IMG/VR virus record: IMGVR_UViG_3300030104_002283
Location: 1 to 57,636 of that record
Direction: 5' to 3' (one strand)
DNA: 57,636 bases
Origin: a virus
Lineage: Duplodnaviria; Caudoviricetes
Both the position numbers and the translations under genes were made by a program. Below are positions 29,482 through 56,500 of this stretch, piece by piece (the stretch's first letter is position 1; each line of letters opens with the position of its first letter). The notes beneath the pieces are model-generated. The model was not told where the DNA came from. It ran no database searches and worked only from the letters and a program-made list of their open reading frames with translations.

Positions 29482-30969
29482 CTAATAATAATTGGCTTCT
29501 CTAGGCGGTAAATCTTCTTCATCTTCGTCAGAGTGTAGAGGAATAAAACCACCTTGTCTAAATCTTATTAATGCTTGGGTTGATGAGTCAACTAAATCGT
29601 CATGGTCTCCAGACGGAAAAGAAGCAAACTCTTCTATAACTTCTTCTGCAAACTTTCTATCAGGTGCCCAAACAATACCAGATGCAAACAAATCAGCAAC
29701 AGCATTAACCCTTGCTATTTTGTCATTACCACGACTAGGCGTATATTCTGATACGGGTATTCCCATTTGCCTAAGTTCAAAGATTAAAGGCATACCTGCA
29801 GCTTTAGCTTCTACAATAAAAGCTTCTGGTTGCCAACTTTGATACATTTCAAAAGCTTTCTTTTTTAATTCTGGAAACTCTAGTCGTTCTTTATACGCAT
29901 CTAACAAAATTAAATTGGGTTGTGTTACACCTGTATCATCAGGTTGGTAAAACACACCCCATGTTGTACACGCAGAGTAGTCAGAACGCTGTGTCTTTAA
30001 AAAAGCTGTATCCCATGACTGAATAATAAAGTCGCATTGTGGGGGATTATCGTACTCCCACTCACGCCACCATTCTCGTTTTATAATTGCAGACTCTTCT
30101 GCAGTAGGATTTTGTTGGTATTGTGCAGACCACTTAGATAAAGGTAGTTCTGCTCGTAGCTTTTCTAGTTCTTTTATATCCCAAAACTCTTGCCACAAGC
30201 TTTTACCTGATGGCAATATTGCAGGAAACTCTATAACTTTCCAATCATCAACACCTTCTCGTTGTGCTGAAGACTTTAGTATTTGCCCAGTCAGGTCCCG
30301 TTTGTGCCATCTTGTCATAACAATAATAATCGCACCACCGGGCTGCAGACGCTGACGGGGACCAGATGTATAGTATTCATACACCTTGTCAAACACAGAG
30401 GGGTCATTACTTTGTCCCTCTTGTTCTGAATGTGGGTCATCTATGATAAGCAAGTCTGCACCTTTACCGGTTACAGCACCGCCTACACCAATCGCAAAGT
30501 ACTCTCCGCCTTTGTTTGTATTCCAACGACCAGCAGCTTTACTGTCAGCTTGTAAACCCACACCATCAAAAACTTTTTTAAAATCTGCAGAACCAACAAG
30601 GTTTCTAACCTTACGACCAAAACCCACAGCAAGTTCTGCAGTGTGAGCCACTTGGATTATCTTCTTTTCTGGAAAGCAGCCTAAAAACCAAGCGGGTAAT
30701 AGATAAGAAGCAAACTCTGATTTAGTATGTCTAGGGGGCATATTTATAATCAATCGTTTTAACTTGCCATTTTTAACATCATTGAAAGCATCAGACATAA
30801 TCTTATGATGATAACCCTCAATAAAGGCAGCCCACATTTCTTTAACAAAAGAAAGAAAGTTATCAGAACAATCCTCTCTGCGTTTAGCAGATTCATATTG
30901 GGACAAAAGTTCTAATAGGTCTTTCTGTTGTTCGGGGGGAAGTTTGTTTATCTTATCAATATCAAACAT
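29482..30969 (-). CDS. terL: Terminase large subunit
   Basis: INMPPRHTKSE, IIDDP, MTRW...DL.G, SWDTA....DYSA, FP.G.HDDLVD. Confidence 0.95.
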   Translation of the reverse strand: MFDIDKINKLPPEQQKDLLELLSQYESAKRREDCSDNFLSFVKEMWAAFIEGYHHKIMSDAFNDVKNGKLKRLIINMPPRHTKSEFASYLLPAWFLGCFPEKKIIQVAHTAELAVGFGRKVRNLVGSADFKKVFDGVGLQADSKAAGRWNTNKGGEYFAIGVGGAVTGKGADLLIIDDPHSEQEGQSNDPSVFDKVYEYYTSGPRQRLQPGGAIIIVMTRWHKRDLTGQILKSSAQREGVDDWKVIEFPAILPSGKSLWQEFWDIKELEKLRAELPLSKWSAQYQQNPTAEESAIIKREWWREWEYDNPPQCDFIIQSWDTAFLKTQRSDYSACTTWGVFYQPDDTGVTQPNLILLDAYKERLEFPELKKKAFEMYQSWQPEAFIVEAKAAGMPLIFELRQMGIPVSEYTPSRGNDKIARVNAVADLFASGIVWAPDRKFAEEVIEEFASFPSGDHDDLVDSSTQALIRFRQGGFIPLHSDEDEEDLPPREANYY

Positions 30970-31418: not shown

Positions 31419-31587
31419 AATATATATCCCCCCCCTGTATGGGACCCTAGAACATTATACGAACATTCCTATAAAAACGCAATATGTAAGTTAGTCAGAA
31501 ATAAAAAAGGGGTACCCCCCTATGAAAATTATGAAATTATATGTACAAAATAGTATGTACCCTAGACACACAAAAATTTTTATATGC

Positions 31588-31608
31588 GGGGGGTGGGGAG
31601 GGGTGGGG
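31588..31608 (+). other. Potential G-quadruplex
   Basis: GGGGGG-T-GGGG-A-GGGG-T-GGGG in an AT-rich intergenic region. Confidence 0.55.
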
Positions 31609-31648
31609 TTAATCCATATGGAAAAAGGGTTTTGCTGATAGTGAGTAC

Positions 31649-32119
31649 TTACTTGTTAAACATTGATTGTATCTTCTGTTCTAACTCTAACCTTATCTCA
31701 TCTGATGATTTATTGCTTGTGGTTGTTTCTAGTCTTTCAGTGAACAGTGCCACCTCTGACACTTTGCCTAGCAGTTCCAATGCCCTTATCCTAGATGCTT
31801 CGTTGTTCTCTGTATTCAATGCTTCTTTCTGTAGCTGTTCCAACACCATCTGTCTAAGAGATAGCCCTGTAGTGGAAGCATACTCACTCTTACGCCTTAA
31901 TCCTTGCTTTACCCTTTGGGATACCTTGGGGCTACTCATAAGCTTAGATGCTTCTGTCCATATGCTACTATCTTTCATATTCTCTGTGCTGTATGCGTTG
32001 CGATAACTCTCACTTGCTGTCATACCTGATAAGACCCCTTGAACAAATTTTTCTTGCTTGGGAGTAAGCCCTGATATGTTAGTTATATTATCCTTGTTAT
32101 TCTTGTCTTTATTGCTCAT
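31649..32119 (-). CDS. terS: Terminase small subunit
   Basis: LTPKQEKF......G...SE.YR.AY, EAS.L...PKV..R, RIRALELLGK. Confidence 0.82.
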   Translation of the reverse strand: MSNKDKNNKDNITNISGLTPKQEKFVQGVLSGMTASESYRNAYSTENMKDSSIWTEASKLMSSPKVSQRVKQGLRRKSEYASTTGLSLRQMVLEQLQKEALNTENNEASRIRALELLGKVSEVALFTERLETTTSNKSSDEIRLELEQKIQSMFNK

Positions 32120-32255
32120 ATCTATGTATTAATCTATTAATATTTAAAATTATTTTGATAGTGCTTACTATCACTGCAGTCCTATTATACGCTTACTTCG
32201 TAAGCAACAACAACTATGTTAACGAACATTTGTAGTAAATAATTACACTTTTTTA

Positions 32256-32284
32256 TTGACACGATACCCCACATAAACTAACAT
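32256..32284 (+). promoter_or_regulatory. Sigma70-type early promoter
   Basis: TTGACA (32256-61), 17-nt spacer, TAACAT (32279-84) at the strand divergence point. Confidence 0.75.
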
Positions 32285-32286
32285 AC

Positions 32287-32730
32287 GCAGTGTTGAGGGA
32301 TTGATGAGACCCAAAAAAGCGAAGAAAAAGTAGCTAACTCCCCTTTCCAAGACACCCATAACGAGACATCTAGTTCTCCTTGAAGTTGGGCTTCGCAACG
32401 AAGCAAAACGATTTGGGTTGCCTAGAGCAACACAAGGTATCGGGGAGACAAACAGAACGGGCTAAACTGGAAATGCCTATCGTGAAAAATCCGAGCATCA
32501 AGCTTTTGTGCGTTTATCCAGTATCCCGACAGTGTTGCCTTTGATGGTTCAATACCGATTTTGCGGAGAATGTAGCGGTTCTACCCTTGATTGAGTTTTT
32601 AAAACTGGCTTAGTGTCCTACTGAACATGGAACGGGGTGTAGCAGTAAAAGTGCTAATTCTGATGGTGTAGCAAAGTCTTTCTCTAGGGGCTAAAAGGTG
32701 TTGTGTGTAGTCAGAAAATCCCATGCTGTT
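32287..32730 (+). ncRNA. Large structured non-coding RNA candidate
   Basis: No ORF of 60 aa or more, GC-enriched, begins just after the promoter, with many nested complementary segments including 5'/3' end pairing GGGATT/AATCCC. Confidence 0.65.
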
Positions 32731-32769
32731 GTGAGTTTTTTGCTTATGTATTAACGATTTAATATTTGA

Positions 32770-32825
32770 TTATGTCCTTGAATTAACAAGCTGAACGAGT
32801 ATCCGCAAGGGTACAAGAAACATAA
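32770..32825 (+). ncRNA. Hammerhead ribozyme 1 (type III, variant core)
   Basis: TTATGT-C / CTTG-aattaa-CAAG / CTGAACGA / GTATCC-gcaa-GGGTAC / aa-GAA-ACATAA; predicted cut after GUC (32776). Confidence 0.75.
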
Positions 32826-32835
32826 CGGAGAAAAT

Positions 32836-33234
32836 ATGAGTTTTAATACAGCATACATAACAACATCAAGACATGGTACAAAAGATTATACGAATGGGCT
32901 TGATGAGATAGTAATTTCAAAAGAGATAGATTGGAACGATGACAATAGAAAAGATGAATTGGTATTTGGGAAATACTATGCTACTAAAGAAGAAGATAAG
33001 AATAATAAAAATCTTTATAAATTAGAGTATAGAAGTCAATTTGGCTTTGTTTTAAAGCCATATAACGAACATAGACCAAATTTAATTGGGGCTATGAATA
33101 ATGGAGTAATTGCTGAAGTACCATTTGATATTTGTAAACAATTAAAAGCATTTGTTGGTTATCCAATATCTAAATATATGCCTGTTCACGATAGATATGA
33201 AACGCAAAAACAGTACGATATGAATTTCAGATAA
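32836..33234 (+). CDS. Early hypothetical protein
   Basis: RBS GGAG at 32827; C-terminal P.HDRYET..QY. Confidence 0.75.
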   Translation: MSFNTAYITTSRHGTKDYTNGLDEIVISKEIDWNDDNRKDELVFGKYYATKEEDKNNKNLYKLEYRSQFGFVLKPYNEHRPNLIGAMNNGVIAEVPFDICKQLKAFVGYPISKYMPVHDRYETQKQYDMNFR

Positions 33235-33296
33235 ACCTATTGATAAGCAACACAGAAAGGTGGCGAAAACAAGGGCTGTATGTCCTTGTTCTAGGT
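33235..33296 (+). ncRNA. Hammerhead ribozyme 2 (type I, U3-A8 core)
   Basis: ACCTA / TTGATAA / GC-aa-CAC-agaaag-GTG-GC / GAA / AACAAGGGC-tgtat-GTCCTTGTT / C / TAGGT; cut after UUC (33291). Confidence 0.85.
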
Positions 33297-33324
33297 AATT
33301 ATATTAATTTTTATAGGAGTAAAT

Positions 33325-33513
33325 ATGAGTGAATTTAATCAAGTAAAATACTTAAAGAAATGTTTGAAAGAAGCAAGAGGAAAATTAGCATATGCAGTTA
33401 TGGAAGATATGTCTGATTTTATAATCAAAAGCTGTGAAGATTCTTGTAAAGCAATTGCTGAAGCATTAGAAGATGCTAAATTTTTAGAAAGTAGAAAAGC
33501 GGATTTTGAATAA
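33325..33513 (+). CDS. Early hypothetical protein
   Basis: RBS AGGAG; lies between two hammerheads. Confidence 0.7.
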   Translation: MSEFNQVKYLKKCLKEARGKLAYAVMEDMSDFIIKSCEDSCKAIAEALEDAKFLESRKADFE

Positions 33514-33526
33514 TATCAAGATTTAA

Positions 33527-33587
33527 ACCTATTGATAAGCAACACAGAAAGGTGGCGAAAAAGCGGACACTTGTTCGCTTTCTAGGT
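33527..33587 (+). ncRNA. Hammerhead ribozyme 3 (type I, U3-A8 core)
   Basis: Same 38-nt 5' half as ribozyme 2 but a different, still paired stem III (AAAGCGGAC-actt-GTTCGCTTT); cut after UUC (33582). Confidence 0.85.
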
Positions 33588-33607
33588 AAATTTTTAAAGG
33601 AGTAAAA

Positions 33608-33790
33608 ATGAAAGCAAATATTTATAAAATTAAATCAAAACAATTTAAGGTTTTTAATGGTATGACCATCAAGGCTTTAAATCCAGCAGAAGCGAAACAA
33701 GAGTTTAAAAATCTTGTTCAGCTTGAAACTAACGAGGTTGTGAAAAGCAATCAATTTAAAATTACGCTGAAATATGCGGGGGTAAATTAA
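33608..33790 (+). CDS. Early hypothetical protein
   Basis: RBS AAGGAG. Confidence 0.7.
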   Translation: MKANIYKIKSKQFKVFNGMTIKALNPAEAKQEFKNLVQLETNEVVKSNQFKITLKYAGVN

Positions 33791-33792
33791 AT

Positions 33793-34095
33793 ATGAAACA
33801 AAGTATAAATGAATATCAATTTAGAGATGCCTTTCATAAGATGGGTAGAGGAGAACAATTTTCATATGATGGGCTTAAAGCTTTATATGATTATTTAGAA
33901 CAGCTAGGAGATAACACGGGCGAAGAAATAGAACTAGATGTTATCGCCTTATGTTGTGAGTATGCCGAATATCAATGTCTTGAGGACTTTCAAAAAGATT
34001 ATGGGAAACGACATTACAAATCTATTGAAGATATAGAAGAACGAACAACAGTTATACAATGTGGTTTGGTCGGATTTATCATTCAACAATTTTAA
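33793..34095 (+). CDS. Early hypothetical protein
   Basis: F...F....R..QFSY.GL.AL.DYLE, ELDVIALCC.Y. Confidence 0.75.
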   Translation: MKQSINEYQFRDAFHKMGRGEQFSYDGLKALYDYLEQLGDNTGEEIELDVIALCCEYAEYQCLEDFQKDYGKRHYKSIEDIEERTTVIQCGLVGFIIQQF

Positions 34096-34112
34096 TTAAA
34101 TAAGGAGTAAGT

Positions 34113-34307
34113 ATGGAAAAGAGAATAATTGTAAGACCTGAAAATGTATATGGAAGAACTTTGTATTATCCAGTTTGTGATATTTCAAAAATGTTCTTGA
34201 AGATACAAGGCGGTAAGACATTATCATTCGATACTATCAGCGTTTTAGCAGATGCTGATTTTAATATCGAAGTGGAAGCGATAATGCCAAAACTTCATAA
34301 TAATTAA
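34113..34307 (+). CDS. Early hypothetical protein
   Basis: RBS TAAGGAG; NVYG....YP.C...K.F....G.KTL. Confidence 0.7.
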   Translation: MEKRIIVRPENVYGRTLYYPVCDISKMFLKIQGGKTLSFDTISVLADADFNIEVEAIMPKLHNN

Positions 34308-34308
34308 T

Positions 34309-34367
34309 AAAGCGGGGGGCTATGGTTTATCCGTAAGCTTTCATATTGGCTGTAGCCCCTTTGCTTT
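34309..34367 (+). other. Long GU-rich hairpin (terminator or RNase III-type site)
   Basis: AAAGCGGGGGGCTATGG pairs with CTGTAGCCCCTTTGCTTT. Confidence 0.5.
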
Positions 34368-34391
34368 CCTGATAGTAAGTACTTACTTTTA

Positions 34392-34446
34392 ATACTGTCC
34401 TACAATATTGGTAATTGTAGCTGAATGAGATACCACGAAACAGTAT
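34392..34446 (+). ncRNA. Hammerhead ribozyme 4 (type III, minimal stem II, loop-loop pseudoknot)
   Basis: ATACTGT-C / CTACAAT-attggta-ATTGTAG / CTGAATGA / G-atacca-C / GAA-ACAGTAT; loop I TGGTA complementary to loop II TACCA; cut after GUC (34399). Confidence 0.85.
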
Positions 34447-34485
34447 ATTGTTTAGAAATATTAATTTGTTTCTATTGGAGTAATT

Positions 34486-34608
34486 ATGAAATTATTTAAT
34501 GATTTCAAAAAATTTCTTTCTGACATGAGAGGGTTAGAAAGATTTAACTGGTATGTATTGAAGCCTTTGGCTTTAATATTTGTATTAATAGCTTTTAGCA
34601 TTTTTTAG
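34486..34608 (+). CDS. 40-aa membrane peptide (not in ORF track)
   Basis: RBS GGAG; MKLFNDFKKFLSDMRGLERFNWYVLKPLALIFVLIAFSIF. Confidence 0.6.
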   Translation: MKLFNDFKKFLSDMRGLERFNWYVLKPLALIFVLIAFSIF

Positions 34609-34622
34609 GAGTAAGTAAAAAT

Positions 34623-35624
34623 ATGAAAGCAAAACAATTAGAAAAAAGCTTAGAGAAGTTAATCTCTATTAAACAGCCCTGTTTCATATGGGGCGGTGTT
34701 GGTGTGGGTAAATCAGAGATTGTCCACAAAGTAGCTAAAGATATGGGCTATAGGATTGAAGATGTAAGAGTTGCATTGTTAGACCCTGTAGACCTTAGAG
34801 GTGTGCCTAGTGTTGAAGATGGAAGAACTGTTTTTAATCCGCCTGTATTTTTACCTACTGATGAACAGCCTAAAACATTGTTGTTTCTTGATGAACTTCC
34901 GCAAGGCAGTCCATCTGTACAGAACGCATTGTTTCAGCTAATCAAGGATAGAAAACTTGGCGAGTACACATTACCTAAAGATACTGTAATAGTTAGTGCG
35001 GGTAATAGAGTACAAGACAAGGCGGGGGCTAACAGAGTTAATACCGCTTTGGGAGATAGGTTTGTTCACTTGAACTTAGATGTATGCCATCAAGAATGGA
35101 TTGACTGGGGCATTAAAACTAAGAAGATAAAACAAGAAGTATTATCCTTTATCTCTTGGCAAGGCGAAGATTATTTATATCACTTTGATAAAAATGCTTC
35201 AGTCAATGCAACGCCTAGAGCATGGGAATATACAAGTAATGTATTGGCTACTGACCCTGATAAAGACATAGAGCAAGAACTTTATGCGGGTATTATTGGC
35301 GAGGGTATAGCCCCTGAATTTATAGCATTTGTTAGAAGATTTAGGAACTTACCTAGTGTTGATGTTCTGTTAAAAAATCCTGAAGATATTTTACAAGACT
35401 TAGAACTTAAATCAGACATGATTTATATGATTGTTGGTGTTCTAGCAAAAAATATGAATAAGGATAATATCCAAAAGTACTATGAATTTCTAAGAGATAC
35501 GCAAGATATTCAAGATGAGTTTTTAGTTATGGCTATGACTATGGCTACAGCTAGAGATGAAAGCTTGAAGAAAACAAAAACATATATTGATTATGAAATT
35601 GATTATCAAGATATTGGGGCTTAA
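34623..35624 (+). CDS. MoxR-like AAA+ ATPase
   Basis: Walker A GGVGVGKS, DLRG.P, Walker B LFLDE, AGNR, AL.DRF, TPR.W. Confidence 0.9.
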   Translation: MKAKQLEKSLEKLISIKQPCFIWGGVGVGKSEIVHKVAKDMGYRIEDVRVALLDPVDLRGVPSVEDGRTVFNPPVFLPTDEQPKTLLFLDELPQGSPSVQNALFQLIKDRKLGEYTLPKDTVIVSAGNRVQDKAGANRVNTALGDRFVHLNLDVCHQEWIDWGIKTKKIKQEVLSFISWQGEDYLYHFDKNASVNATPRAWEYTSNVLATDPDKDIEQELYAGIIGEGIAPEFIAFVRRFRNLPSVDVLLKNPEDILQDLELKSDMIYMIVGVLAKNMNKDNIQKYYEFLRDTQDIQDEFLVMAMTMATARDESLKKTKTYIDYEIDYQDIGA

Positions 35625-35666
35625 CAGCCCCTTGTCTATTAACCCATTAATATTTAAGGAGAAACT

Positions 35667-36548
35667 ATGGCTCAATTAAGAGACAAAGCATTATTGATTG
35701 AACTTCATTTGAAGAAATGGAGTGGAGTAAAAACTGATAAATCATTAAGAGATGAATTAGCTAATAATCATTCTATTGATGAGACTAGAATTTCAGTCAA
35801 CAAAAAACTAACTAACAGCCCTATCTTGAAAAAAATCAAAAAGATTGATGGCAAGATAAGAACTGAATGTATCTATAGCGGGGCGGGTTATAGCGGTTAT
35901 TGTTTGGCTTGGGATAATCAAGGTACTTATCTATTACCCATTGAATTAAAAGATAAGTTTGAAAGAGACTTCGTTGGTTGGCAGAACGAAAGAGAAAAAT
36001 TAGTAAAAGATTTTGTTAAACAATATGACAATATTATTGCAGAAGCTAAGACTGATTTAGGAACTACTTTTAATATTGATGATTTTCCTAGTAGAGATGA
36101 GATAGAAGATTTATTTGAGTGTAGCATCTTAAAGAAACCTATCCCATCAAGTAATGATATTAGAGTTAATCTTCCCGCCAGTGAGATAGCAGAGTTAAAA
36201 GCAAATGCTAAAGCTGAAGAAGATGCGAAGATGCAAAAGATAACTGGGGCAGTTGTTGATAAGGTTCAAGGTGTATGTAAACACTTTGCAGATAAGATTG
36301 ATAGCGGAGAAACATTTAGAGATAAAACTGTTGATAAGCTTATTGAACTTTGCGAAGTGCTACCCGCATTGAATATAAATGGAGATGCAAATATTCAGTC
36401 AGCACATCAAAAAGCTATGGATACTTTTCATGGTAAAGATATAACAGCAGATAAAGTTAGAAATGATAAAGAGTTAGCTAAAGAATTATCTAATACAGCT
36501 AAAGATATTGTTTCTGATTTAGATACTAAAGGGGGTTATTTTGACTAA
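35667..36548 (+). CDS. DUF3150-like helical protein
   Basis: W...K.DK, L.W...G..LLP, LG..FN..D.P, L..LN...D; lies between AAA and VWA-peptidase genes. Confidence 0.55.
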   Translation: MAQLRDKALLIELHLKKWSGVKTDKSLRDELANNHSIDETRISVNKKLTNSPILKKIKKIDGKIRTECIYSGAGYSGYCLAWDNQGTYLLPIELKDKFERDFVGWQNEREKLVKDFVKQYDNIIAEAKTDLGTTFNIDDFPSRDEIEDLFECSILKKPIPSSNDIRVNLPASEIAELKANAKAEEDAKMQKITGAVVDKVQGVCKHFADKIDSGETFRDKTVDKLIELCEVLPALNINGDANIQSAHQKAMDTFHGKDITADKVRNDKELAKELSNTAKDIVSDLDTKGGYFD

Positions 36549-37779: not shown

Positions 37780-38046
37780 GTGAGTATGAAAAATAAGTAT
37801 TTAATAATTAGCAAAAGAAATGGAGACTTAGGTATTAACAAAGATGGATTTGTTCAATATCGTAATTTTTCTGATGAGCCATTAGTGATGGTGGTTGAAG
37901 AAGAAACTCCATTCACAAAACAAGATGCATTTAATGAGTTTGCATCTATGGTAGAAACTACAGAAGAAAGAAAATTAAATATTAACCATTTTAATATTTT
38001 CAGTGGGGCTGACATTGATGATATTAAATATTACTGGGGGGCTTAG
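37780..38046 (+). CDS. Hypothetical protein
   Basis: RBS TAAGGAG. Confidence 0.65.
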   Translation: MSMKNKYLIISKRNGDLGINKDGFVQYRNFSDEPLVMVVEEETPFTKQDAFNEFASMVETTEERKLNINHFNIFSGADIDDIKYYWGA

Positions 38047-38047
38047 A

Positions 38048-38743
38048 ATGAATAAAGAAAAACTAAAAAAGATAGCAGACAAGTTTGTTATGGAAAGAGA
38101 ACAAGAGCAGTTGGAATATCCTGTTGAGGATTATTCCGCAGACAAAGTTATTCTTTATCACGGAACTAATACAGATAACCTTGATAAGATACTTGAAGAT
38201 GGGCTGTATCCTAGAGGAAACAACGAGGGTAATTGGGAACATACCATACGCAGTAGAAATGATATGGTATATCTAACGAACTCTTACGCAGTTTACTTTG
38301 CTATGTGTTCAATACCTAAAGATAGCAAGGCAAGTCCTGTAGTCCTAGAAGTAGAGGTTGATACAAAAAGTCTTTACCCTGATGAAGATTTTATGGAACA
38401 AGCCACAAGAAATAATGCTATGTGGCAAGATTATTTTATGTCTATTGGACATGAAGATATGACAGCTAGAACCGAATACTTTAGAGATAACATATCTGAA
38501 TTTCAAGATGATTATACTAACAGTTTAAAGCATCTAGGTAATGCCTGTTATTTTGGGGAGATTAAACCTGAAAGCATCAAAAGATATTCTGTCTTAGATG
38601 TTGGTAAAGTTTGGGAACATTCTGACCCGACAATAACTTTAATGAATTATAAAATTTTAGGTAGCAAATATAGAAAGCTATCCAAAAAATTAATGTGGGA
38701 AGAACCCCTATCTATTAACCAAGTAATATTTAATAAGGAGTAA
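38048..38743 (+). CDS. ADP-ribosyltransferase-fold protein (Tpt1/KptA-like H-G-T motif)
   Basis: LYHGT....L..IL..GL.P, VYLT...A..FA, PVVLEV.V; start set at MNKEK. Confidence 0.6.
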   Translation: MNKEKLKKIADKFVMEREQEQLEYPVEDYSADKVILYHGTNTDNLDKILEDGLYPRGNNEGNWEHTIRSRNDMVYLTNSYAVYFAMCSIPKDSKASPVVLEVEVDTKSLYPDEDFMEQATRNNAMWQDYFMSIGHEDMTARTEYFRDNISEFQDDYTNSLKHLGNACYFGEIKPESIKRYSVLDVGKVWEHSDPTITLMNYKILGSKYRKLSKKLMWEEPLSINQVIFNKE

Positions 38744-40357: not shown

Positions 40358-40523
40358 AACAGCTTTTAAAAAACCAATAGTAAGTAAGAACTACTTTACA
40401 ATTCGTATGCCTGATGATTTGCGTAAGCAAATACAAACTGAAGCTGATAAGAATTATAGAAGTTTATCTTCGCAAATAATCTTTATGCTTCAACGACAGA
40501 TTGAACAGCATAATGACAAGTAG
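40347..40523 (+). CDS. Arc-like ribbon-helix-helix DNA-binding protein (not in ORF track)
   Basis: FTIRMPDDLRKQIQTEADKNYRSLSSQIIFML matches the Arc pattern; RBS GGAG. Confidence 0.8.
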   Translation: MQTKTAFKKPIVSKNYFTIRMPDDLRKQIQTEADKNYRSLSSQIIFMLQRQIEQHNDK

Positions 40524-42790: not shown

Positions 42791-42819
42791 TAGTGTATTA
42801 CTAATCTAGTAATATACTA
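42791..42819. repeat. Inverted repeat upstream of primase-helicase
   Basis: TAGTGTATTACT-AATCT-AGTAATATACTA; same arm as the 31061/31105 repeats. Confidence 0.65.
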
Positions 42820-43086
42820 ATCATTCAAATTTTCTCTTTGCCAAACAGTAGCTGATATAGAGGAAATAATATCTTCAGATAATTTCTTTTTGTTTTTGGC
42901 ATTTAATAAGCCTAATAAAGATTGTCTTATTGTATGAGGTTGAATACCAACAATACTGCAAACTTCAATAAATTCTTTTGATGTAATCCAATCAACAGCA
43001 TCTTCGTATTTCCTTTTATTATTACTGGCAATATCTCTGATGGCTTGGATAATCACTGATAGATAAATTTCTTTTAGTTTATTCAT
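42817..43086 (-). CDS. Hypothetical protein
   Basis: VI.QA..D......DA..W....F..VC...G. Confidence 0.65.
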   Translation of the reverse strand: MNKLKEIYLSVIIQAIRDIASNNKRKYEDAVDWITSKEFIEVCSIVGIQPHTIRQSLLGLLNAKNKKKLSEDIISSISATVWQRENLND

Positions 43087-47563: not shown

Positions 47564-50500
47564 TTATCTTACTACAGCTTTGTCTCCCAAGCCTTGTAAA
47601 TATTCTTTTCTTCTTCTCATTATTTGTTCTGCTCTTAAATAATCATTTTTTTGTTCTGCTATGCTATCTAATCTAATTCTTTTTTCTTCTGAAGAAAGAG
47701 TTGAACTATTTATTATTGATGCTTCTGCGGTTCTAAATTCTTTTAATTCATCAGCGACTTTTTGTAATTCTTTTTGCAATCTTTTTAAATCTCTCATGTA
47801 TTCTATTTTGTATTCATCTGTTAAACCTTTTGCAAACTTGTCTCTTTTTTCTATGTTATCTTCTATTACTCTAAATGTATTTATTGTGTCATCTACATCT
47901 TTCTTTAGATTATAAAATTGGTTTTCATAATTACTTCCCTCTTTTGGTAAAAGAAATCTACCTATTACTGGAAGTTGGTCAACGCCAAATTTTACTCTTT
48001 CCGCATCTGTTAAACCCTCTCTTAAAACACTATCTGTTGCTATCATTAAATAACTTCCTAATGTTCCTGTATAACCTCTAACAAGATTTTCTACATACAA
48101 AGGGCTAATGTTTAACTCATCTCCTATTACTTTAGAAAGAGTATCTGTTTGTGGTCTATAACCCGCATCATCAGTTCCTTTTAAATAGTCAGGCACTATT
48201 TGTCTGCCTGTAAACAAATCATAGTTAGCAAAGTTTTCTACAAGAGGGTCAACAGCCGTTGGTAATGTTAAAGAGAAAGTATGTCTTGTCATTTTTTTAA
48301 TTCTTTTAGCAACATCTTCTCCTGCTACATCATCTGCAAAATAAGATGTAAGCCGTTCGGGAACAGTCATACTAATTAGTCCGACTTCAAAAGGTTTAGG
48401 TATTACTAATGGAAAACCGCCTGTTATTTTTTTGCTTCCGGGTATAATTAAATAGTTATCTTTTATTTCATCAGGTGCTTCTTCATATTCTTCTGAATCT
48501 CTAACTAAAAAATAATATCCGGGCATCATAGCCATTATTGTTGCTAGTCTTAACCACACACTTTTTGTTCTTTTTGATGGACTTAAACCTCTACCTATTC
48601 CATATCTTCCTGTTAAACCTCTATAAAAAACATCTAGTCCTTGTAGCCTAGGATTTAAAAACATTGTCATTTGTTGATATGTTTGAAAAGCTTTATTGTT
48701 ACCACGCCTTGTAAAGTTTAAAACTTCTAATGCTTGATAAATTGCTTCAGCTTCGTTGCCTGTTCTTTTTAATGTATCTTTATATACAGCAACTCTAGTA
48801 GCAGCATCTGTTATAGCTGTACCTTGTCCTAGTATATCCCATAAACCAGTTACTAAATCTATAGGAAACATATAAATTTTTTCTGCTGTTGGTCTTTCAC
48901 TTTTAAAAGCATTTTTATAGTAACCATCAATAAGACTTTGTGTGCTATCTATTTCTCTTATACCTTTGTCATAGCCTGTTATTATTCCTGCATTTTTTAA
49001 TTTAACAAACTCTTCTGGAAGTCTGCCGGTAATCATTCCTTTAGCTATCCTAAAAGTTTCTGCTACTGAAGAAATCACTGGTATATAATTAGCACCACTT
49101 AAAGTATAAGCAGATAATGAATCTCTTAATATTTGTGCAATCCAAAAAGCAGGAGCTCTTGTTATTAAATCACTAACAAATCTTTTAGTTCCTCTTGCTA
49201 TATTCATAAGAAGATTCATAGGTGCATAATCAGCTTCTGACATTACATTCATTGAATAATATAACATTGGGTCATCTATTTTAAAGTTTGTATTTTTTCC
49301 TTTAACTCTTATAGTAATTACATCTGGTCCTTTAACATTACCTTTAACTTGTTTAGCTACTTCTAAATCTATAAGATTACGCATTACTCTATTAGCTGCT
49401 ACATTTTTCATACCTAAATTTATAGCTGCTCTTAAATTGTTTGTAATGCCAGTAATAGGGTCAACAATATCTTTTGTTTCACTACCTTTAGCTTTTTGAA
49501 ATGGAGTTATAGATAAACCTTGAAATATTTTTGGTCCTTTAAATCCTTCCATTCCTTCTAGCGGTCTATAAAAAGGAATGTAATCTGAATTTGCTAACCA
49601 TGTTTCTGCTGTCTTTGCATCTAATACACCAGTATCAACTAAAAATTGAACTGTATGTTCATTAGTTCTATTGTACTCATCAATCATAGTTTGTACTTCA
49701 GGATAATCTTGTAATACTTGTTTAGCTTTTTTTCTATCGGCTGCTGTTACTTTTACTTTCCTACCTTCTTTATTAAATCTTGTTTCTCTTTTAACTCTTT
49801 GTACTGCTTGGAAAGCCCAAAGTAAATTAGGATTTTTATAAGCTGGTGCAAATATATCAGCAAAAGGTAAAACAGGTTTACCATCTATTTGTGATATATC
49901 AGTTACATAAGTGTATCCTTTATCTTTATCATAACGAGGAAAACCTCTTATGAAAGATTGCATAAATATATCTCCTGACCTATCAGAAAAATATAAAGCT
50001 GCACCTGCTGACATACTAGCAAGTAACATTTGGTCTCCGTATTTATTTTTTTTACCTGCTTTAACATCTGTTAATGCTAATCTTCCATACCTATCTGCTA
50101 TTTGTTCTCTAACTTTCATACCAAATTCTTTGGTAGCATCAATAGGTTTAAAGCCTTCTAATACAAGTTGACCAATAGTTTTACTTTCAATAGTGTCATC
50201 TCTTACTGTTAAATTTTCTATTAACTCTTCAGCATTTTGATTTAAAGGATTTTTATTTTTATTAAATGAATACTTTAATTTAATATCATTTGGTATGTCA
50301 TTAATAATAGAATCTACATCTGCATTAGTTTCAGATGTACTATTTTTAATTTCTTTTTGTGCTTCTATTGCTGCGGATACAGCACTAGGCGATGCATTAG
50401 TATTTATTACAGGAATTAAACCTGCTGCTATAGAGTTTTGTTCTTGTTCTTTTGCAGTTTGGATATTTTCTTTATCTTGTTCACTAAGTTCCGGTTGTTC

Positions 50501-53500
50501 TTCCGAGCTTCCTCTTCTGCTTCTGCTTCTATTTCTATCAACGATTCTATCGTCCTGAAATAATTGGGCGGTATCTTCTTCGACAATTTCTTCTCCTAAT
50601 TTTTTAGTGTTATTAATATAAGTAAAACCAACATTAGGTGTTGCTGTTCTTTTTACATAATCTTTTAATGCATTGTAACTATCTTTTACTTTATTATCTA
50701 TTGATACTAAATAATCAACAGATACAAACCTTCCTGTTTCACCAAATCTAGTAATAGCTCTTACTATAGCTTGATTTATATTAGCATCTGGATAAACAAT
50801 ATCTACTTTATATCCTCTGCTTTGCAAATCTTGCATTATATATTTAATTTTACTTATATCTGGTTGCCTACGATTATTAGTTTTACCTGCAACTTTAGGT
50901 ATTATTATATTTGCACCTTCTTCTATAAATTGTTTTTGAATTTCAGCAGCAATATATTTTGAAAATTTATGTGTAGCATTAGCTCCTATACCATTTTTAT
51001 ATTCAGGCATTTGTTTTTTAGCATCATCAGCATCAACTATTGCATAACCTTTTCTTGCAGCTATATTTTCAGCAAATGTTGACTTACCTGTAGCTGGTGG
51101 TCCAATTATTATGACTGCTTTTTTATCGTATTTTAAATTACCTTTTGCATATTCTGTGGCTATGTCTGTTAACTCAGGAATCATTTCATTCATTCTTTTG
51201 TTTCTTTGAGCTTCAGTTAAATTATCATAAACATCAGGTATAGCTAATGCTTCATTTTGCATAGCTAACATAGCTGGGTGATTTACTAAAGCATACATAT
51301 CATCTGCATTTATATTATCATTTTGATATTGCGGTTCGTTTGCTAACAAAATTAAATCTGCTTTTGCATCTAACAACTCTTGTCTAGTTAAAGTTTTTAT
51401 TTGCTCTTGTGGAACATTAAAATTTCCAGATGTTATAGTTTGAGTATCACCTTGTATTATTATTCTATCTCTTTGAATTTTATTTACATCTTGTAAGTGT
51501 GTAGTTAAAACTTGTTTACCTGTAGTATCTCCATAATCATCTATTAAAAAGTTTGTTGGTATTAAAAGTTCTTGTTCTCTTATATAGTTATATCTATCGG
51601 CATATAAATTATTTGCATCACCAAGCATAGACTCACCCCTATATAAAGCGTTCATATTTACTGCTATAGCTTCTTTAGGTAAAAGATATTTTTTAACATT
51701 GTAGCCATACTTAGCTATATCTTCTGGTCTGCCTTCTGCTCTAAGTAATTGTCTTCCAAATTCTTCTAATGTTACATTTGGTTCTATTGTTCCATCTTGT
51801 TTTCTTTTGTAATAAAGTTCCTCTATTCTTTCATTTCTTCTTAGTAAATTTTGTCCAAAAGATTCTGCTATAAATTTATTAGTTGTTGTAGGTATTAATT
51901 GATAACTGTCATCTATACGACTTCCTCTGTACACAACTATTTCTTCAGGAAATAATTTTATAGATTCTTGTGTAACAAAATCTATACCATCAGAAATTTC
52001 TTGTGCTTGTACTACAGATAAATTTGGAAATCCAAAACCATAATGAAACAATCCTTGATTTTTTCTATTGCCTGTTAATTGTTTCACAAAAGCTTTAGCT
52101 CCTAAAGTCATTAATGGTGCTATATATTCTGAACCTTCTCCTCTTCCATCTTTTAAAAATTCTTTTATAGGCGGTGGTATTGATGCAACAGTTCCATATA
52201 AGTTTCTAAAGTATCCTTCTAATGTAGGTGCACCTGATTGTTCTTCTAGTGTTGCTTTTACATCATCAATTAATCTACCATTTGTTTCTCTTAAAGAGTA
52301 TTTTAAATTACCCAATTCAGGCGGGTCTTCTACAAAAGATGTTGAGACTGTTTTTTTATTATCATTTGATTTTACTAACAGATTTGGATTATTAGTATTT
52401 TCTAAAACTAAAGTTTTATGTCTTTCAGATAATTCGTTATCACCAAATATATTATTTAATTTTTGTGTAATGCTTGAACCATCTCCAGTAATATATTCAG
52501 GTTTTTGACTAAATATAAAATTAGAACCTAGTAATAATGGATTTAATAATATAGCTTGTGGTTTAAATAAAACAGGAGTTATGTATTGGTCGTATTCATT
52601 TTGTTTATTTGGTCCTACATTATTGCCTATATATTTTTGGTATTTTTGTTGAGTTATAAATGGGCTTTCTATTCTTTTACTTGCATCATTTATATTATTA
52701 TATACAGTTAAAGTATCCATACCTTTAGCTACATCTGTTTCTCCTATTGCAAAACCGACATAATAATCACTATCTGAAAGTTTTCTAAATTTATATTCTG
52801 CAAATGTAGCTTTACTATTTGGTGTTATGTTATTTGCTTGTAAATATTCTTGTGTTGTTGCAAATAAAAGTTGACTACTTTTTGCAATTTTAAAATCAAG
52901 GTTATTATAATTTATATCATTAAAATTACTTGTTTCTCTTAGTTTATTATTTTTATCTTTAATTATATTTGTTAAAGTTTTTTGAAAACCATCTAACTTT
53001 ATTAAAGGATTTGTAGCATTATTAACTTGTCTTTTATAAACATCTAATACTATATTTTGAATATTTGTATCTATTACAGGACTCCATTCTCTAAATTTTC
53101 TATCGGTTTCAAATGGTCTTGTATTACCTATTTGTTCTTCTAGTTTATTTTCAATTTGTTGTTCAGTTAAACTAAATGCAAGACTTGGCTCATCAGATAC
53201 TGGCGGTTTAGGTTTAATATTAAGAGGTGTTGATTGTTGTAACTGTTGTAATTCTTGTGTAGTTCTTATTGTTCCTCTTGGTCTAGCTGCTATTTCTCCT
53301 GTTACAGCAGCTTCTAAAATATCTCCAGCTGATTTATATTTAGTTTTAAATACAGCGTTTGCTAATCCTTTAAAAAAATTAGATGTTTTTTGTAATGCGT
53401 TTCTAGGTCTGCCAGTTATTTTTTTTGGATTATTAATATAATCTTCAAACATAAAAGCTATTGCTTCATCTACAAAATCAAATTCACTGGTATATCCCGG

Positions 53501-56500
53501 TTTACCTTCATACCTGTCTAAAGCTTCTTCGTAATAAGTTTTACCATCTTTTCTTATTTTAGTTTTAGCAAAATTTTCTAAAGCATTTATTTCTTGTGCC
53601 GTAAATAAATCAGCTTGTCTTAAAGCGTGCCAACTTTCATGTCCTAAAGTTTGAGATATATTTTGTAAAAACTTTTTAGCTCCATTTTTTTCAGATAAAA
53701 CATTTAAGTCTGCTTTATCTAAAGATAAAAGTATTTCATTTGCTGCTCTATCAAATACACCATCAGCTTGACTAAAATTTATATTATCTCTATTTTTTAC
53801 TCTATCTAAAAAAGTAGTAAATTTTAATTTAGTTTCCGGTAAATTAAGTTTATCTGATAACTTTATAATTTCTTGTTGTACTGTTTCTATTGCTTCATTT
53901 AAACTTGTTTCTACTAGCGGTCTTAAACTTCCATCAAAATTATATTTTCTATTAGAAGTACCTGTAAATTTAAAATCGTTATCTAAATAACCAGCAGTTA
54001 CAAATGTTTGTCTTAAATTTTCTGCAGCTTTTTTATTTAAACCTGTTGAGTCTTGTATGTTTTTTATAGAAACTTTTTTGCCCACATCTATTTTTTCTAA
54101 GCCTTCTAAAGCTATTGAATAATCATTTATGTTGTAAGCTGTAGCACTTAAATCTAATAATTTTGTTTCTGTATTTGCTTTGGGTAGTCTATTAAAAAAA
54201 GAATATAATAATCTTTTTTGAGGTAGCCCCATTTTATTTATATCTGTTTCAGCTACTAATCTATTTGCTACATATTTAAAAGCATTTGAATCTACAGTAT
54301 CAATTATGTTTAAGTCTTTTAATAAACTGTTAAATGTTTTTTTAGAAAAAGACTTTTGTTTAACTTCGCTAAAATTATTTTGTTCGGTTTGATATTTTAA
54401 AACTTTATTAAATTCTGTTGGAGTTAAAAATTCTTTTAATGTATTTGCATTTACTAATGGATTAAATTTTTGAATCTCTTTTATTTCTGTTAAAGTTTCT
54501 TCTGATATATTTAAAGTTTTTAAATCGTCAATATGTATATCTAATAAATAAGAATTATTTATGTTATCTACAAAATCTAATATTAAATTATTATCTGCAT
54601 CTACATTTTGTTCTATAGCTTTTTCTTGCGACCATTGAATTTCTGCTATCATATTAGAACGCTTTTGCAATTCTGTTAAAACATCTACAGCATATTGTTG
54701 GTCTTTATATCTAGCAACTTCATTTTCATTTAAGTCTGTTATAACAAAATCACCATTTTCATCTGGTAAAATATTTCCTTGTTTATCAAAACGACTTTTA
54801 AAATAATTATTACTTTCTACACCAGAATTTTTTTCTATAATTCTTACAATATTAAAATTATTATCTTGTAATATTTGGTCAGCTTCTAATACTGCAGGAG
54901 TAAAACCTGTATAATTTTTAAAATTTTCTTCTTGTTCAAAAACTAATCTTTGTGCTTCAATAGAAATTTGTGCTGGGTTTGCATCAGGATTTAATTGTTG
55001 TATTCTTTGAAACTCTTTTTTTATTTTAGCTTCTATCTCTTTTCTATATGGGTCCTCTACTGGTAAACCATTTAATTTATCTCTATAATCTTTAACTGCC
55101 CTAATTCTATCTTCATATAATTCTTTTTGTCTTTTTGATTTATTAGTTGTATAAGCAGAAGTAAGTTGTGCTACAGGCACTTCAACAACTGAAAATCCAA
55201 ACTCTCCAACAACTTCTAAAGCAACATCTCCTATTCTTATTTGCTCTCCTTCTTCTAAAGTAGAAAGTTGTGCAAAGTATTCTCCTGCTCCACCTAATGT
55301 TCCTTGTAATGGAGCTTGAACTAAACTATTAATTAAATGTCTTGATGCATTATCTTTTATTGTATCTTTTGCAAATATAGTTCCTCTTGATGGAGCTATA
55401 ACTTTAGGAGCTAATTTAAAAGCTGCAGCATCAAACGCACCAATAAAGACTCCTCTTTTTATTACATATTGTCTAAGTCTTTTTCTGTTATCGTCTTCAT
55501 TTAAAAAAGCTACAACAGCTTTTTCATCATTTATATCTACACCATTTTTTCTTAAAAACTCTGTAGCTGAATATACAGTATCTACTGAACCAGAAGCTAT
55601 ACCTGTAGCTATAGAACCAGCTGTATAACTTCTTGTTAACATACTTGTGCCAACACCTGCAGATAAAGAAATACCCATTGGTACCAAACTAGAAGCTACA
55701 GTTTGTTTCACGATGCCAGTAAAATCAGATAACAATATATCTACTGCTTCTTCTGTGCTTTCAGCTTCTGCAAATGCTTTAAATGTTTCAGAAGTTTTTA
55801 CATTTTGTTGTTTACTTATTGCACTAGCTATTTCTTCATTAGCTATTTCTTGCGACCTTAATAATCCAAAAGGGGGTATTCTTTTACCATCATATATAAA
55901 ATCCATTGGGTAAGTTCCATACAAACCACCATCAGTAATACCACCATATTCTCTGTTTCTATATTCTTCTTCTCCTATTTTGCTAATTCTTTCTAAATCT
56001 ATTTTTGTATCTTTGTCTGTTTTATTACCTAGTGTATAAGGAGTTATTGTGCTTATATCAACACCATCGTATTTTCTTCCGTAAATTATTTGTTGTAAAT
56101 AATCTATTCGTTCTCTGTCTTCTTTAGTTTTATTTACTTTATTATTTATTTCTTGTAGTTCTTTTTTTATTTTTACTATAAGTTCTTCATTTCTAATTTT
56201 TTCTTTTTGAAAAGCTATTTCACCAAAAAATTTTTGTGCACCTGATTCAGTTATAGTATCAGTTACTCCTGTTTCTTCTCCAAAAAAAGATGGACTTGCT
56301 TCTTTTTCTTCTTCAGTAAATTTTCTTTGTGGACCTTGTGTAGCTCTTTTATATATGGAAGGTATTAAATCTGTTGCTACATATTTAATATTTTCTAAAC
56401 CTTGTGTTATTGCAGATGTATTTAGACCGGGCATAGGAGAAAAATCTCCAACTCCTAATGCAGAAAGTGCAGCTAATTTATCTCCTGCAGAAACATCATC

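Follow-up and report, generated by a model that had tools for sequence, protein, structure and literature searches.

Organisation of the locus

The stretch of DNA analysed here (hereafter, the window) spans the whole 57,636 nt of the viral record IMGVR_UViG_3300030104_002283. It is a complete 57.6-kb marine phage that is a distant relative of the HTVC023P/HTVC027P-type pelagiphages, and the locus described below is the head of its non-structural (early) operon, with the following features:

31649-32119, minus strand: terS (small terminase gene)
32256-32284, plus strand: sigma-70-type promoter, TTGACA-17 nt-TAACAT (10 of 12 matches), transcription start inferred near 32289-32291
32289-32776, plus strand: leader RNA without coding signal, about 488 nt when counted to the predicted cut of site 1
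32297-32722, plus strand: core fold of the leader (426 nt, about 21 helices, 118 predicted pairs)
32770-32825, plus strand: site 1, hammerhead-like fold of type III (class B), core CUGA-A-C-GA with AA inserted before GAAA, predicted to be cut after C32776
32836-33234, plus strand: ORF, 132 aa, no family
33235-33296, plus strand: site 2, type I hammerhead of class A, core UUGAUAA (U3/A8), predicted to be cut after C33291
33325-33513, plus strand: ORF, 62 aa, no family
33527-33587, plus strand: site 3, type I hammerhead of class A, core UUGAUAA (U3/A8), predicted to be cut after C33582
33608-33790, plus strand: ORF, 60 aa
33793-34095, plus strand: ORF, 100 aa, phrog_9974
34113-34307, plus strand: ORF, 64 aa
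34309-34367, plus strand: strong terminator-like hairpin with an A-tract on one side and a U-rich tail on the other (-29.3 kcal/mol, z = -2.59)
34371-34386, plus strand: palindromic motif GATAGTAAGTACTTAC, candidate protein-binding site
34392-34446, plus strand: site 4, type III hammerhead of class C with an inserted A6a (CUGAAUGA), predicted to be cut after C34399
34486-34608, plus strand: ORF, 40 aa
34623-35624, plus strand: MoxR/AAA_5-type ATPase

The leader sits in the divergent gap beside terS, and the 40-aa ORF and the ATPase gene are the first conserved genes past the ribozyme array. A preliminary description of this DNA had named one consensus promoter, in agreement with the number of matching positions and with the same placement of the promoter in relatives, where it is found in two differing sequence versions and, in all subgroups of the leader (see below), directly upstream of it. 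The promoter is the top scorer among 11 promoter-like sites in a scan of 31500-36000, a number which is not above that of shuffled sequences (16.1 +/- 4.3). The palindromic motif GATAGTAAGTACTTAC recurs at 31637-31652 (plus strand) and 32157-32172 (minus strand), with six matches at up to three mismatches versus 1.12 expected.

With respect to the wider setting, a DNA similarity search with 32200-34500 gave no match among 50,697 phage records, and the words noncoding, ribozyme, hammerhead and intergenic are absent from the main text of papers on HTVC023P-type pelagiphages. A 3053-aa protein considered as a virion RNA polymerase was dropped from consideration, as Pfam assigns LPD38 and Zeta_toxin/AAA domains to it and no polymerase.

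Fold and conservation of the leader RNA

The stretch of about 480 nt behind the promoter had been described as free of ORFs and as folded. Neither statement needs revision as such: the longest stop-free frames in 11 homologues comprise 28 to 82 codons and differ between sequences, the variable columns are distributed evenly over the three codon phases (29/29/28) and hence lack periodicity, and covariation identifies the stretch as a real structured RNA, which single-sequence folding does not (MFE -118 kcal/mol versus -125.7 +/- 6.0 kcal/mol for shuffles, z = +1.27).

The core fold is closed by the pairing of GGGAUU (32297-32302) with AAUCCC (32717-32722), the longest-range of its helices bridge distances of up to about 400 nt, and its invariant motifs include GCCUAGAGC (32420-32428), GAAAAAUCCG (32484-32493) and UCUCUAGGGGCUAA (32681-32694). 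Of the leader's invariant parts, the loop CCUAGAG is the complement of the stretch CUCUAGG, and CUAG is complementary to itself. In an alignment of 17 sequences from four subgroups with a mean identity of 69%, 53 of the 118 pairs are changed on both sides, in contrast to 8-26 with slid partners and 35.6 +/- 3.0 after shuffling, and none of 500 shuffles reaches the observed number. Likewise, 92.0% of cells are paired, compared to 39-44% with slid partners. G-U pairs account for 238 of 1519 cells, and pairing declines from 99.3% to 84.0% when the opposite strand is read. Cross-validation, with the structure taken from four sequences and seven others tested, was weak: 155 changed cells were kept and 87 broken, which is barely above the slid controls except for double changes (31 versus 1-8). 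When relative L029 was compared with a first structure, based on a MAFFT alignment that was later replaced by the wider one, 19 double changes were kept and 41 pairs broken. A switch between leader and site 1, in which a helix GACAU/AUGUC joined the site-1 substrate strand to the leader, was abandoned because this helix was not retained after the divergent subgroups had been added.

At gathering score, the leader matches none of the Rfam models, including ROOL, GOLLD, OLE, RNase P, 6S, tmRNA, riboswitches and introns; a search with 501 nt returned only three noise-level matches (E 4-6), ARAGORN found no tRNA or tmRNA, and an RNase P-like reading of two leader motifs was dropped for want of a model match. 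A 22-mer of the leader has no match in genome contigs. A BLAST search of ten viral records with the leader was negative for all ten; however, as the phage G010 among them carries a homologue detectable by nhmmer, this result is uninformative. The nhmmer profile, applied to seven whole phage genomes, matched in G010 only. The leader is an RNA family without an Rfam match and looks new.

In a seawater RNA library two contigs lie on the leader (32312-32501 and 32479-32664), although these data are contigs of one run (X1) from which ends and strand cannot be read. The same run has no contig on 32724-34600 and is therefore silent on the cut sites and on mRNA levels.

The four hammerhead-like sites

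A descriptor scan together with MFE folds reproduces all four predicted cuts (after 32776, 33291, 33582 and 34399). The MFE folds form a three-way junction at sites 1 to 3 and stems I and III only at site 4, and the descriptor parse accommodates all four sites in the three-helix topology. The cuts lie in intergenic gaps upstream of an RBS, as had been proposed, with a GGAG-type RBS and an ATG following within 50-85 nt or less, and blocks of homology between relatives end at these ribozyme/RBS linkers. What had been called four complete three-stem hammerheads on one strand are indeed four folds on the plus strand, but to call them complete is an overstatement, all cores being variant. The strict hammerhead consensus core occurs in none of the four, the deviations being U3/A8, an extra A and an AA insertion: sites 1 and 4 read CUGA-A-N-GA with one A inserted after A6, and site 1 alone has a second insertion, AA between stem II and G12. 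In all copies of the sites' classes, A15.1-U16.1 is kept and position 17 is never a G.

General tests do not single out these sites. The comparison with Rfam hammerhead models that had been suggested earlier (RF00008, RF00163 and RF02275-7) yields no match at gathering thresholds in the whole window, so that none of the four sites is called, nor does any hammerhead appear within 32100-34700 when the limit is relaxed to E<=10. The relaxed descriptor on its own is not above chance either, with six matches in the window where 30 shuffles gave 3.7 on average (range 0-8); the additional matches at 40406-40512 (plus strand) and 42797-42883 (minus strand) look like chance. As Rfam is silent, and as the descriptor count and the leader MFE are within the range of shuffles, the support beyond chance comes from the relatives, in which the stems covary and the elements are kept at cassette borders.

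Class A (sites 2 and 3) was compared in 16 distinct copies from 12 sources. Of its cells, 96.7% are paired versus 30-45% with slid partners, and 8 of 19 pairs are changed on both sides. The C3-G8 position is CG in 13 copies, UA in three and unpaired in none, without intermediates; the core carries three unrelated stem III hairpins among the copies, and H17 is C, A or U and never G. Sites 2 and 3 are identical in their 5' 38 nt and differ in their stem III hairpins. The U3-A8 copies (two in the window, one in relative L003) may share a single origin and have spread by gene conversion. Against Rfam, a canonical class A copy in relative L005 scores only 13.6 bits, with a partial match to the wrong type. 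The exact class A pattern occurs at 17 viral loci, in contrast to one match in 185,579 species genomes, which lies inside a G + C-rich coding sequence and was dismissed as chance; a class A model search of Pelagibacter phage HTVC027P found no class A hammerhead.

For class C (site 4), 11 distinct sequences are available from four leader subgroups and a more distant phage (a 73%-TerL relative). Here 12 of 19 pairs are changed on both sides, compared to 0-2 with slid partners, and 96.2% of cells are paired. Site 4 has a stem II of 1 bp and a loop I/loop II pseudoknot UGGUA/UACCA, of which one pair covaries (GC in eight sequences, AU in three). The core CUGAAUGAG is invariant, with A6a present in all 11 sequences. 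When 81 nt were searched, RF00008 aligned with site 4 from end to end at 17.9 bits versus a cut-off of 48.5, the extra A being an insertion. The 11 distinct sequences of class B (site 1) are 100% paired and 2 of 17 pairs covary, and site 1 has no Rfam hammerhead match even in a 76-nt search; it is the weakest-supported of the four. The covarying stems, the switch from C3-G8 to U3-A8 without intermediates, the invariant A15.1-U16.1 and the absence of G at position 17 support the four sites as hammerhead-type elements under selection.

Proposed transcript processing, alternatives and known systems

The hairpin at 34309-34367 (tail UUUGCUUU) follows the last small gene and precedes site 4. It is conserved in L003 and L005 and is absent from the list of a simple terminator scan because its loop is longer than the limit of that scan. 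The claim that a single transcript is cut by all four sites thus went too far: with the hairpin upstream of it, site 4 may have read-through RNA or a transcript of its own as its substrate.

The leader occurs both with and without a ribozyme behind it. In the window's subgroup, site 1 follows the leader in all 16 close relatives that are long enough, and subgroup 4 carries a different hammerhead-like element there. However, 11 of 26 distinct leader copies lack a ribozyme between the leader and the first RBS or gene, namely all six distinct copies of subgroup 2 and all five copies of subgroup 3 with enough sequence, and in these two subgroups the fold reaches the first RBS within about 25-45 nt. 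Release of the leader by a ribozyme is therefore lineage-specific, and the free ncRNA of the preliminary description does not hold as a general trait of this RNA.

Our overall proposal, which we consider probable, is that of an early-operon head with a structured leader, a self-cleaving array and a freed leader. The host RNA polymerase would start at the near-consensus promoter and first transcribe the leader of about 490 nt, with site 1, as a putative variant type III hammerhead, directly 3' of it in the window's lineage; sites 2 and 3 (predicted type I, covarying U3-A8) would follow after two gene cassettes, and site 4 would lie ahead of the ATPase module. Self-cleavage would then release the leader, leaving it with a 2',3'-cyclic phosphate end, and cut the polycistronic RNA into short mRNAs whose 5'-OH would lie a few tens of nt before the RBS, and the freed leader could be a stable early RNA serving as a scaffold or decoy. 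The analysis itself shows the promoter match, the lack of coding signal, and the folds with their covariation and their conservation at cassette borders; that the operon is transcribed as a single unit and cleaved, what becomes of the ends and what the leader might do is what we infer. As to the leader itself, we lean slightly towards regarding its 426-nt core as the type of a new class of structured RNA, large and ornate, which stands at the head of the early operon in a widespread group of marine pelagiphage-like phages and which in one lineage has been freed by a recruited, doubly variant hammerhead.

It is possible, if rather doubtful, that the fold of about 430 nt is instead a cis-acting 5' leader of the early operon and not a free RNA, the site-1 hammerhead being late, lineage-specific and dispensable. 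Such a leader might serve as a sensor, as an element for processive antitermination or for the modification of RNA polymerase, or as a cap that stabilises the mRNA. The proximity of the ribozyme-free fold to the first RBS in subgroups 2 and 3 is what such a leader would show, as is the 5'/3' closing helix next to the expression region, which resembles that of aptamer domains, and the terminator-like hairpin further downstream would be a possible target for antitermination. The consistent presence of a ribozyme in the window's subgroup and the different element at the equivalent spot in subgroup 4 argue in the other direction, as do the contigs of the RNA library on the leader, the absence of a match to Rfam riboswitch or leader families, and a size of 426 nt that is unusually large for a cis element. 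That the conservation of the ORF-free 490 bp should have nothing to do with RNA and should reflect a DNA-level element, such as an origin of replication or a site for packaging adjacent to the gene for the small terminase, is very improbable: while the divergent gap adjoining terS and the palindromic motifs nearby would suit it, many covarying pairs are G-U and would be A-C mismatches on the opposite strand, the promoter is conserved directly upstream in every subgroup, and helices extend over up to about 400 nt.

Another alternative, which we deem unlikely, concerns the hammerhead-like elements, which might be dead or nearly so and be kept as linkers of ribozyme relic and RBS for the exchange of cassettes by homologous recombination. 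All four cores being non-consensus, the silence of Rfam, the identical 38-nt 5' parts of sites 2 and 3 and the breaks in homology at the linkers would be in line with this, and decayed copies do exist (L014:351-402, with remnants in L003 and L029). In addition, A6a is described as low-activity in the part of Perreault et al. 2011 (PMC3088659) available to us, which, however, reports U3-A8 ribozymes to be active. Moreover, compensatory changes preserve all three stems, C3-G8, which is relevant only to the catalytic core, switches to U3-A8 without mixed states, at site 4 the pseudoknot covaries and the core is the same in four subgroups and the 73%-TerL relative, and linkers for recombination would need neither A15.1-U16.1 nor a non-G at position 17. 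Given the low activity measured in 2011 for the only natural A6a variant examined, any cleavage at sites 1 and 4 may likewise be slow.

In comparison with known systems, the proposed processing is analogous in its working to that of phage T7, of which the window is not a member. In T7, host RNase III cuts the early polycistronic RNA at intergenic hairpins into individual mRNAs with 5'-phosphate and 3'-OH ends, i.e., by a host protein enzyme, whereas the RNA considered here would cleave itself, which yields 5'-OH and cyclic phosphate ends. ROOL and GOLLD are multi-helix non-coding RNAs of several hundred nucleotides found in phages and prophages, whose function is unknown. The leader resembles them as a large multi-helix phage RNA; unlike them, it has about 430 nt, matches no Rfam family in sequence or structure (the ROOL and GOLLD models were among those searched), and is located at the very start of an early operon after a sigma-70 promoter, with a hammerhead next to it in one lineage. 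A small self-cleaving ribozyme beside a phage non-coding RNA, where it is able to set an RNA end, is also known from the theta ribozymes adjoining phage tRNA genes, which, according to the portion of that article at hand (Nat Commun 2024, PMC10879173), differ in being HDV-like, in accompanying tRNAs and in occurring in gut phages.

The closest counterparts are found in Perreault et al. 2011, whose accessible text (PMC3088659) describes multiple hammerheads flanking prophage genes, with processing of long phage transcripts to mRNAs of gene length as the proposed role, demonstrates in vitro cleavage for three hammerhead arrays, and reports the natural core variants U3-A8 (active) and A6a (rare, low activity). 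As arrays and both variants were thus described in 2011, the array part is a known phage habit and not, as had been thought, an undescribed architecture. Common to both are several same-strand hammerheads in intergenic gaps of phage operons with variable gene content between them, loop I/loop II pseudoknots and a stem II of down to 1 bp; sites 2 and 3 share U3-A8, and sites 1 and 4 the one extra A after A6, with the published variants. Unlike those arrays, as far as this text goes, the present one is headed by a large structured leader, has variant cores at all four sites, and belongs to marine phages and not to prophages of cultured bacteria; also, in contrast to the rare A6a published there, the insertion is fixed in a whole subclass here (11 of 11 in class C). 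For the AA insertion before G12 of site 1, and for the layout of leader plus ribozymes, the literature search found no description. The array is hence a new example of a known arrangement, while the large leader RNA looks new; of the earlier interpretation, hammerhead-type elements and a structured RNA remain, whereas the undescribed array, the single transcript and the free ncRNA are unsupported or overstated.

A 2019 review, in the part available, calls the roles of self-cleaving ribozymes in bacteria largely elusive; for the biological role of hammerheads in bacteria and phages, this phage family is a useful test case. As its ribozymes occupy fixed positions that can be compared across many genomes, recovered from metagenomes and viromes of the ocean, testable predictions can be made for the mapping of RNA ends in marine metatranscriptomes, and the subclass with fixed A6a, an insertion thought to be detrimental, is a natural case for the tolerance of the core. 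The large structured RNA, with and without a 3' ribozyme, is a new candidate among the few large non-coding RNAs of unknown function. If the leader is indeed such a class of RNA, the occurrence of the same RNA in tethered and in ribozyme-released forms would be a natural experiment on cis versus trans action of a big phage RNA.

Genome setting and relatives

The window is the entire IMG/VR virus record (57,636 bp, rated complete). The structural and packaging genes are encoded on the minus strand, left of 32119. To the right, on the plus strand, are the non-structural genes, amongst them those for a MoxR-type ATPase, a DUF2201 metallopeptidase/VWA protein, a Sak annealing protein and a PD-(D/E)XK nuclease; a primase-helicase also belongs to this right-hand group but is encoded on the minus strand. 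The leader RNA and the hammerhead array are located at the divergent junction of both gene blocks.

Features at the junction
29482-30969, minus: terL, packaging gene
31649-32119, minus: terS, packaging gene
31637-31652 (plus), 32157-32172 (minus), 34371-34386 (plus): palindromic motif GATAGTAAGTACTTAC and close variants
32256-32284: promoter TTGACA-17-TAACAT
32770-32825, plus: site 1, type III, predicted cut after C32776
33235-33296, plus: site 2, type I, predicted cut after C33291
33527-33587, plus: site 3, type I, predicted cut after C33582
34309-34367: strong terminator-like hairpin separating the last small gene from site 4, preceded by an A-tract and followed by a U-rich tail, -29.3 kcal/mol
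34392-34446, plus: site 4, type III, predicted cut after C34399

By TerL the closest cultured phages are 023Pt_psg01 (56.9% aa) and the Pelagibacter phages HTVC027P (55.7%) and HTVC023P (54.0%), and the relatives found stem from marine metagenomes and viromes; SAR11 as the host is a weak guess. One relative was retrieved via the ATPase, and 15 metagenome and 5 viral loci via two invariant leader words; after removal of 7 contained duplicates, 17 oriented segments including the window were compared. Scans for the canonical core of class A (the class of sites 2 and 3) and for a pair of leader motifs separated by a gap of variable length yielded 17 and 21 viral loci, respectively, and seven whole phage genomes were added.

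Elsewhere in the window, a 3053-aa ORF (47564-56725, minus) has LPD38 (large polyvalent protein) and Zeta_toxin/AAA_33 kinase-like domains, by which an assignment as RNA polymerase was rejected; it resembles the polyvalent proteins found on phages and conjugative elements. The product of 38003-38743 (plus) is possibly an ADP-ribosyltransferase-like early protein, its match to the PARP catalytic domain being weak (24.9 bits, below the Pfam cut-off of 26.7).

The four hammerhead-like sites

Sequence reading, folding and a descriptor scan all agree on the four elements and cut sites of the preliminary description, and a GGAG-type RBS lies downstream of every predicted cut. The consensus core is present in none of them: sites 2 and 3 read UUGAUAA and sites 1 and 4 (classes B and C, respectively) CUGA-A-N-GA, with AA between stem II and G12 in site 1 and a stem II of one pair in site 4. 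The proposed Rfam check returned no hammerhead match for sites 1-4 at thresholds; in a very short search site 4 aligned end to end with RF00008 (17.9 bits, the extra A as an insertion), and site 1 had no Rfam hammerhead match even there. Since, in addition, the relaxed hammerhead descriptor was no better than shuffles (6 matches vs a mean of 3.7), the case for ribozymes rests on the relatives.

For class A, a covariance model trained on 14 copies recovered 16 distinct ones, from 12 sources. In the model-fitted alignment 96.7% of cells are paired; the value drops to 30-45% when partners are slid, and double-sided changes occur in 8 of 19 pairs. At the tertiary pair C3-G8, 13 copies have CG and three have UA, with no mixed state; natural U3-A8 covariation was reported, with prior proof of activity cited, by Perreault et al. 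(2011, PMC3088659). The UA copies are sites 2 and 3 of the window and a third in the relative locus L003; they may stem from one event, as sites 2 and 3 share an identical 38-nt 5' part. The core carries at least three unrelated stem III hairpins, position 17 is C, A or U, and in more distant phages stem II of class A is combined with different stems I and III.

For class C, the close group provides 3 covarying pairs in 5 sequences. Once copies from further leader subgroups and from the phage G002, whose TerL is 73% identical, are included, 12 of 19 pairs are doubly changed amongst 11 distinct sequences (0-2 when slid), including one pseudoknot pair (GC in 8 sequences, AU in 3). The inserted pseudoknot pair of G002, UGGCUA/UAGCCA, can be read directly from its sequence. 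Since the core CUGAAUGAG is invariant in these 11 sequences, across subgroups and G002, A6a is a fixed trait of a conserved subclass, whereas PMC3088659 has one A6a variant, of low activity; that paper also describes stems II as short as one pair and reports pseudoknots between loops I and II as frequent. In the relative locus L066 (minus strand), a class-C-like type III fold lies about 60-125 nt past the leader motif with the core CUUUGAAGA where CUGAAUGA is expected; it represents another core variant or else a dead copy.

Class B pairs in 100% of cells in 11 distinct sequences; covariation is limited to two pairs and, in each of these, to one sequence, and its variable core position (C, U or A) is consistent with N7. 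Because of its two core insertions and the missing model match, site 1 has the weakest case for being a ribozyme. No description of its second insertion was found in the literature searched.

The leader RNA and its downstream junction

The promoter of the preliminary description is the best sigma-70 match within 31500-36000, a region in which matches of this kind show no overall enrichment. Downstream of it comes a folded stretch with no credible ORF from about 32289 to 32835. The consensus leader fold (17 sequences, 69% mean identity) has 118 pairs in 21 helices, with 92.0% of cells paired (39-44% when slid), 53 doubly changed pairs (8-26 slid, 35.6 +/- 3.0 in shuffles) and 240 doubly changed cells (81.5 in shuffles). 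Several helices, one spanning about 390 nt, show three to five pair types, and the ends are closed by GGGAUU (32297-32302) with AAUCCC (32717-32722). RNAalifold on the close group gave 140 pairs, 23 with double changes, counted in the same 11 sequences from which the fold was derived; cross-validation of the fold was weak, and the MFE of the window's leader was not below shuffles (z = +1.27). Variable columns lack codon phase (29/29/28), and from the G-U share of 238/1519 cells it follows that the fold belongs to the plus-strand RNA. Two seawater metatranscriptome contigs (190 and 189 nt) fall on 32312-32501 and 32479-32664; they come from one public RNA run, which as contigs is blind to RNA ends and expression level. 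The invariant motifs GCCUAGAGC (hairpin loop, 32420-32428) and UCUCUAGGGG (32681-32690) have a 7-nt complementarity, and CUAG within them is self-complementary; they could form a tertiary contact or a dimerisation site.

The motif-pair scan revealed four leader subgroups, differing by hairpin insertions and many substitutions. The expectation of the same layout in relatives holds for the close ones, in which class B directly follows the leader in 16 of the 16 reaching that far, but not throughout: of 29 distinct leader copies, 26 have enough downstream sequence to judge, and a ribozyme follows in 15 and is absent in 11. Class B is present in all 14 judgeable copies of the window's subgroup, the sole subgroup 4 copy (L066) has the class-C-like fold with the aberrant core, and in six copies of subgroup 2 and five of subgroup 3 an RBS follows the leader directly, at a distance of no more than about 25-45 nt. 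The subgroup 2 junction resembles a class A 3' end minus the body, which suggests, as far as sequence goes, that the ribozyme was lost there; class A and C hammerheads further downstream are kept in the subgroups lacking one after the leader. G002 has at the same place (L061:1448-1786, minus strand) an ORF-poor leader of about 335 nt (MFE z = -2.30; a 44-codon ORF without obvious RBS) with no detectable similarity to that of the window, followed by a class-C-like hammerhead.

Transcription by the host polymerase would begin near 32290 and the leader would then fold, to be freed in this lineage by the site 1 cut after 32776. It is tentatively regarded as a stable early RNA that is set free and serves as a scaffold or decoy; a leader acting in cis seems somewhat less likely.

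Proposed transcript processing and cassette borders

After cuts at sites 2 and 3 the ribozyme body would stay attached to the 3' end of the preceding mRNA, and the following mRNA would start with a short 5'-OH leader; after a cut at site 4 the ATPase-module RNA would carry the body at its 5' end. Hammerhead cleavage produces 5'-OH and 2',3'-cyclic phosphate ends, which here might alter decay or translation. The elements themselves are confirmed, and their interpretation is partly supported. The hairpin 34309-34367, terminator-like in both directions and conserved in the relative loci L003 and L005, falls within the supposed single transcript. As this hairpin and the palindromic motif precede site 4, the latter may process read-through or a second transcript instead of the RNA of sites 1-3. 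The motif (6 matches at up to 3 mismatches vs 1.12 expected) has its sites past terS, within the divergent promoter gap and immediately ahead of site 4. It occurs also in relatives (L005 about 2905-2925) and may serve as an operator or as a promoter element specific to the phage.

When the window is compared with L003, L005 and others, homology is broken at ribozyme-plus-RBS linkers with differing genes in between, in agreement with the non-constant gene identities in hammerhead arrays described in PMC3088659. RBS linker and ribozyme form a conserved cassette border. A AATTTTTATAGGAGTAAATATGA-type RBS linker is repeated after ribozymes at 33306-33328, 33589-33611 and 34467-34489. Decayed copies, namely a class A element without core and stem II at L014:351-402 (minus) and a mere post-cleavage UAGGUAA linker at L003 about 3340-3352 and L029 about 1855-1870, point to gain and loss at these borders.

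Other, unrelated marine phage genomes also have 3-4 canonical hammerheads grouped into arrays over 1-4 kb, and arrays of this kind appear common in ocean viromes.

Hammerhead arrays elsewhere
G004 (phage genome), 5585-9857
L026, 8535-11428
G006 (phage genome), 58596-59677
L032, 1433-5606

PMC3088659 already offers precedents for the array, for U3-A8 and A6a, and for the minimal stem II and the pseudoknot, and the ribozymes are therefore new representatives of a known kind. Of the architecture presented as undescribed, the array is thus known, but neither the leader, which matches no Rfam family, nor its pairing with a ribozyme was found in Rfam or the literature searched (main texts, largely from open journals). 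Theta ribozymes, reported beside phage tRNAs, provide an earlier instance of a ribozyme adjoining a phage non-coding RNA. The large leader RNA is the most novel component of the locus.
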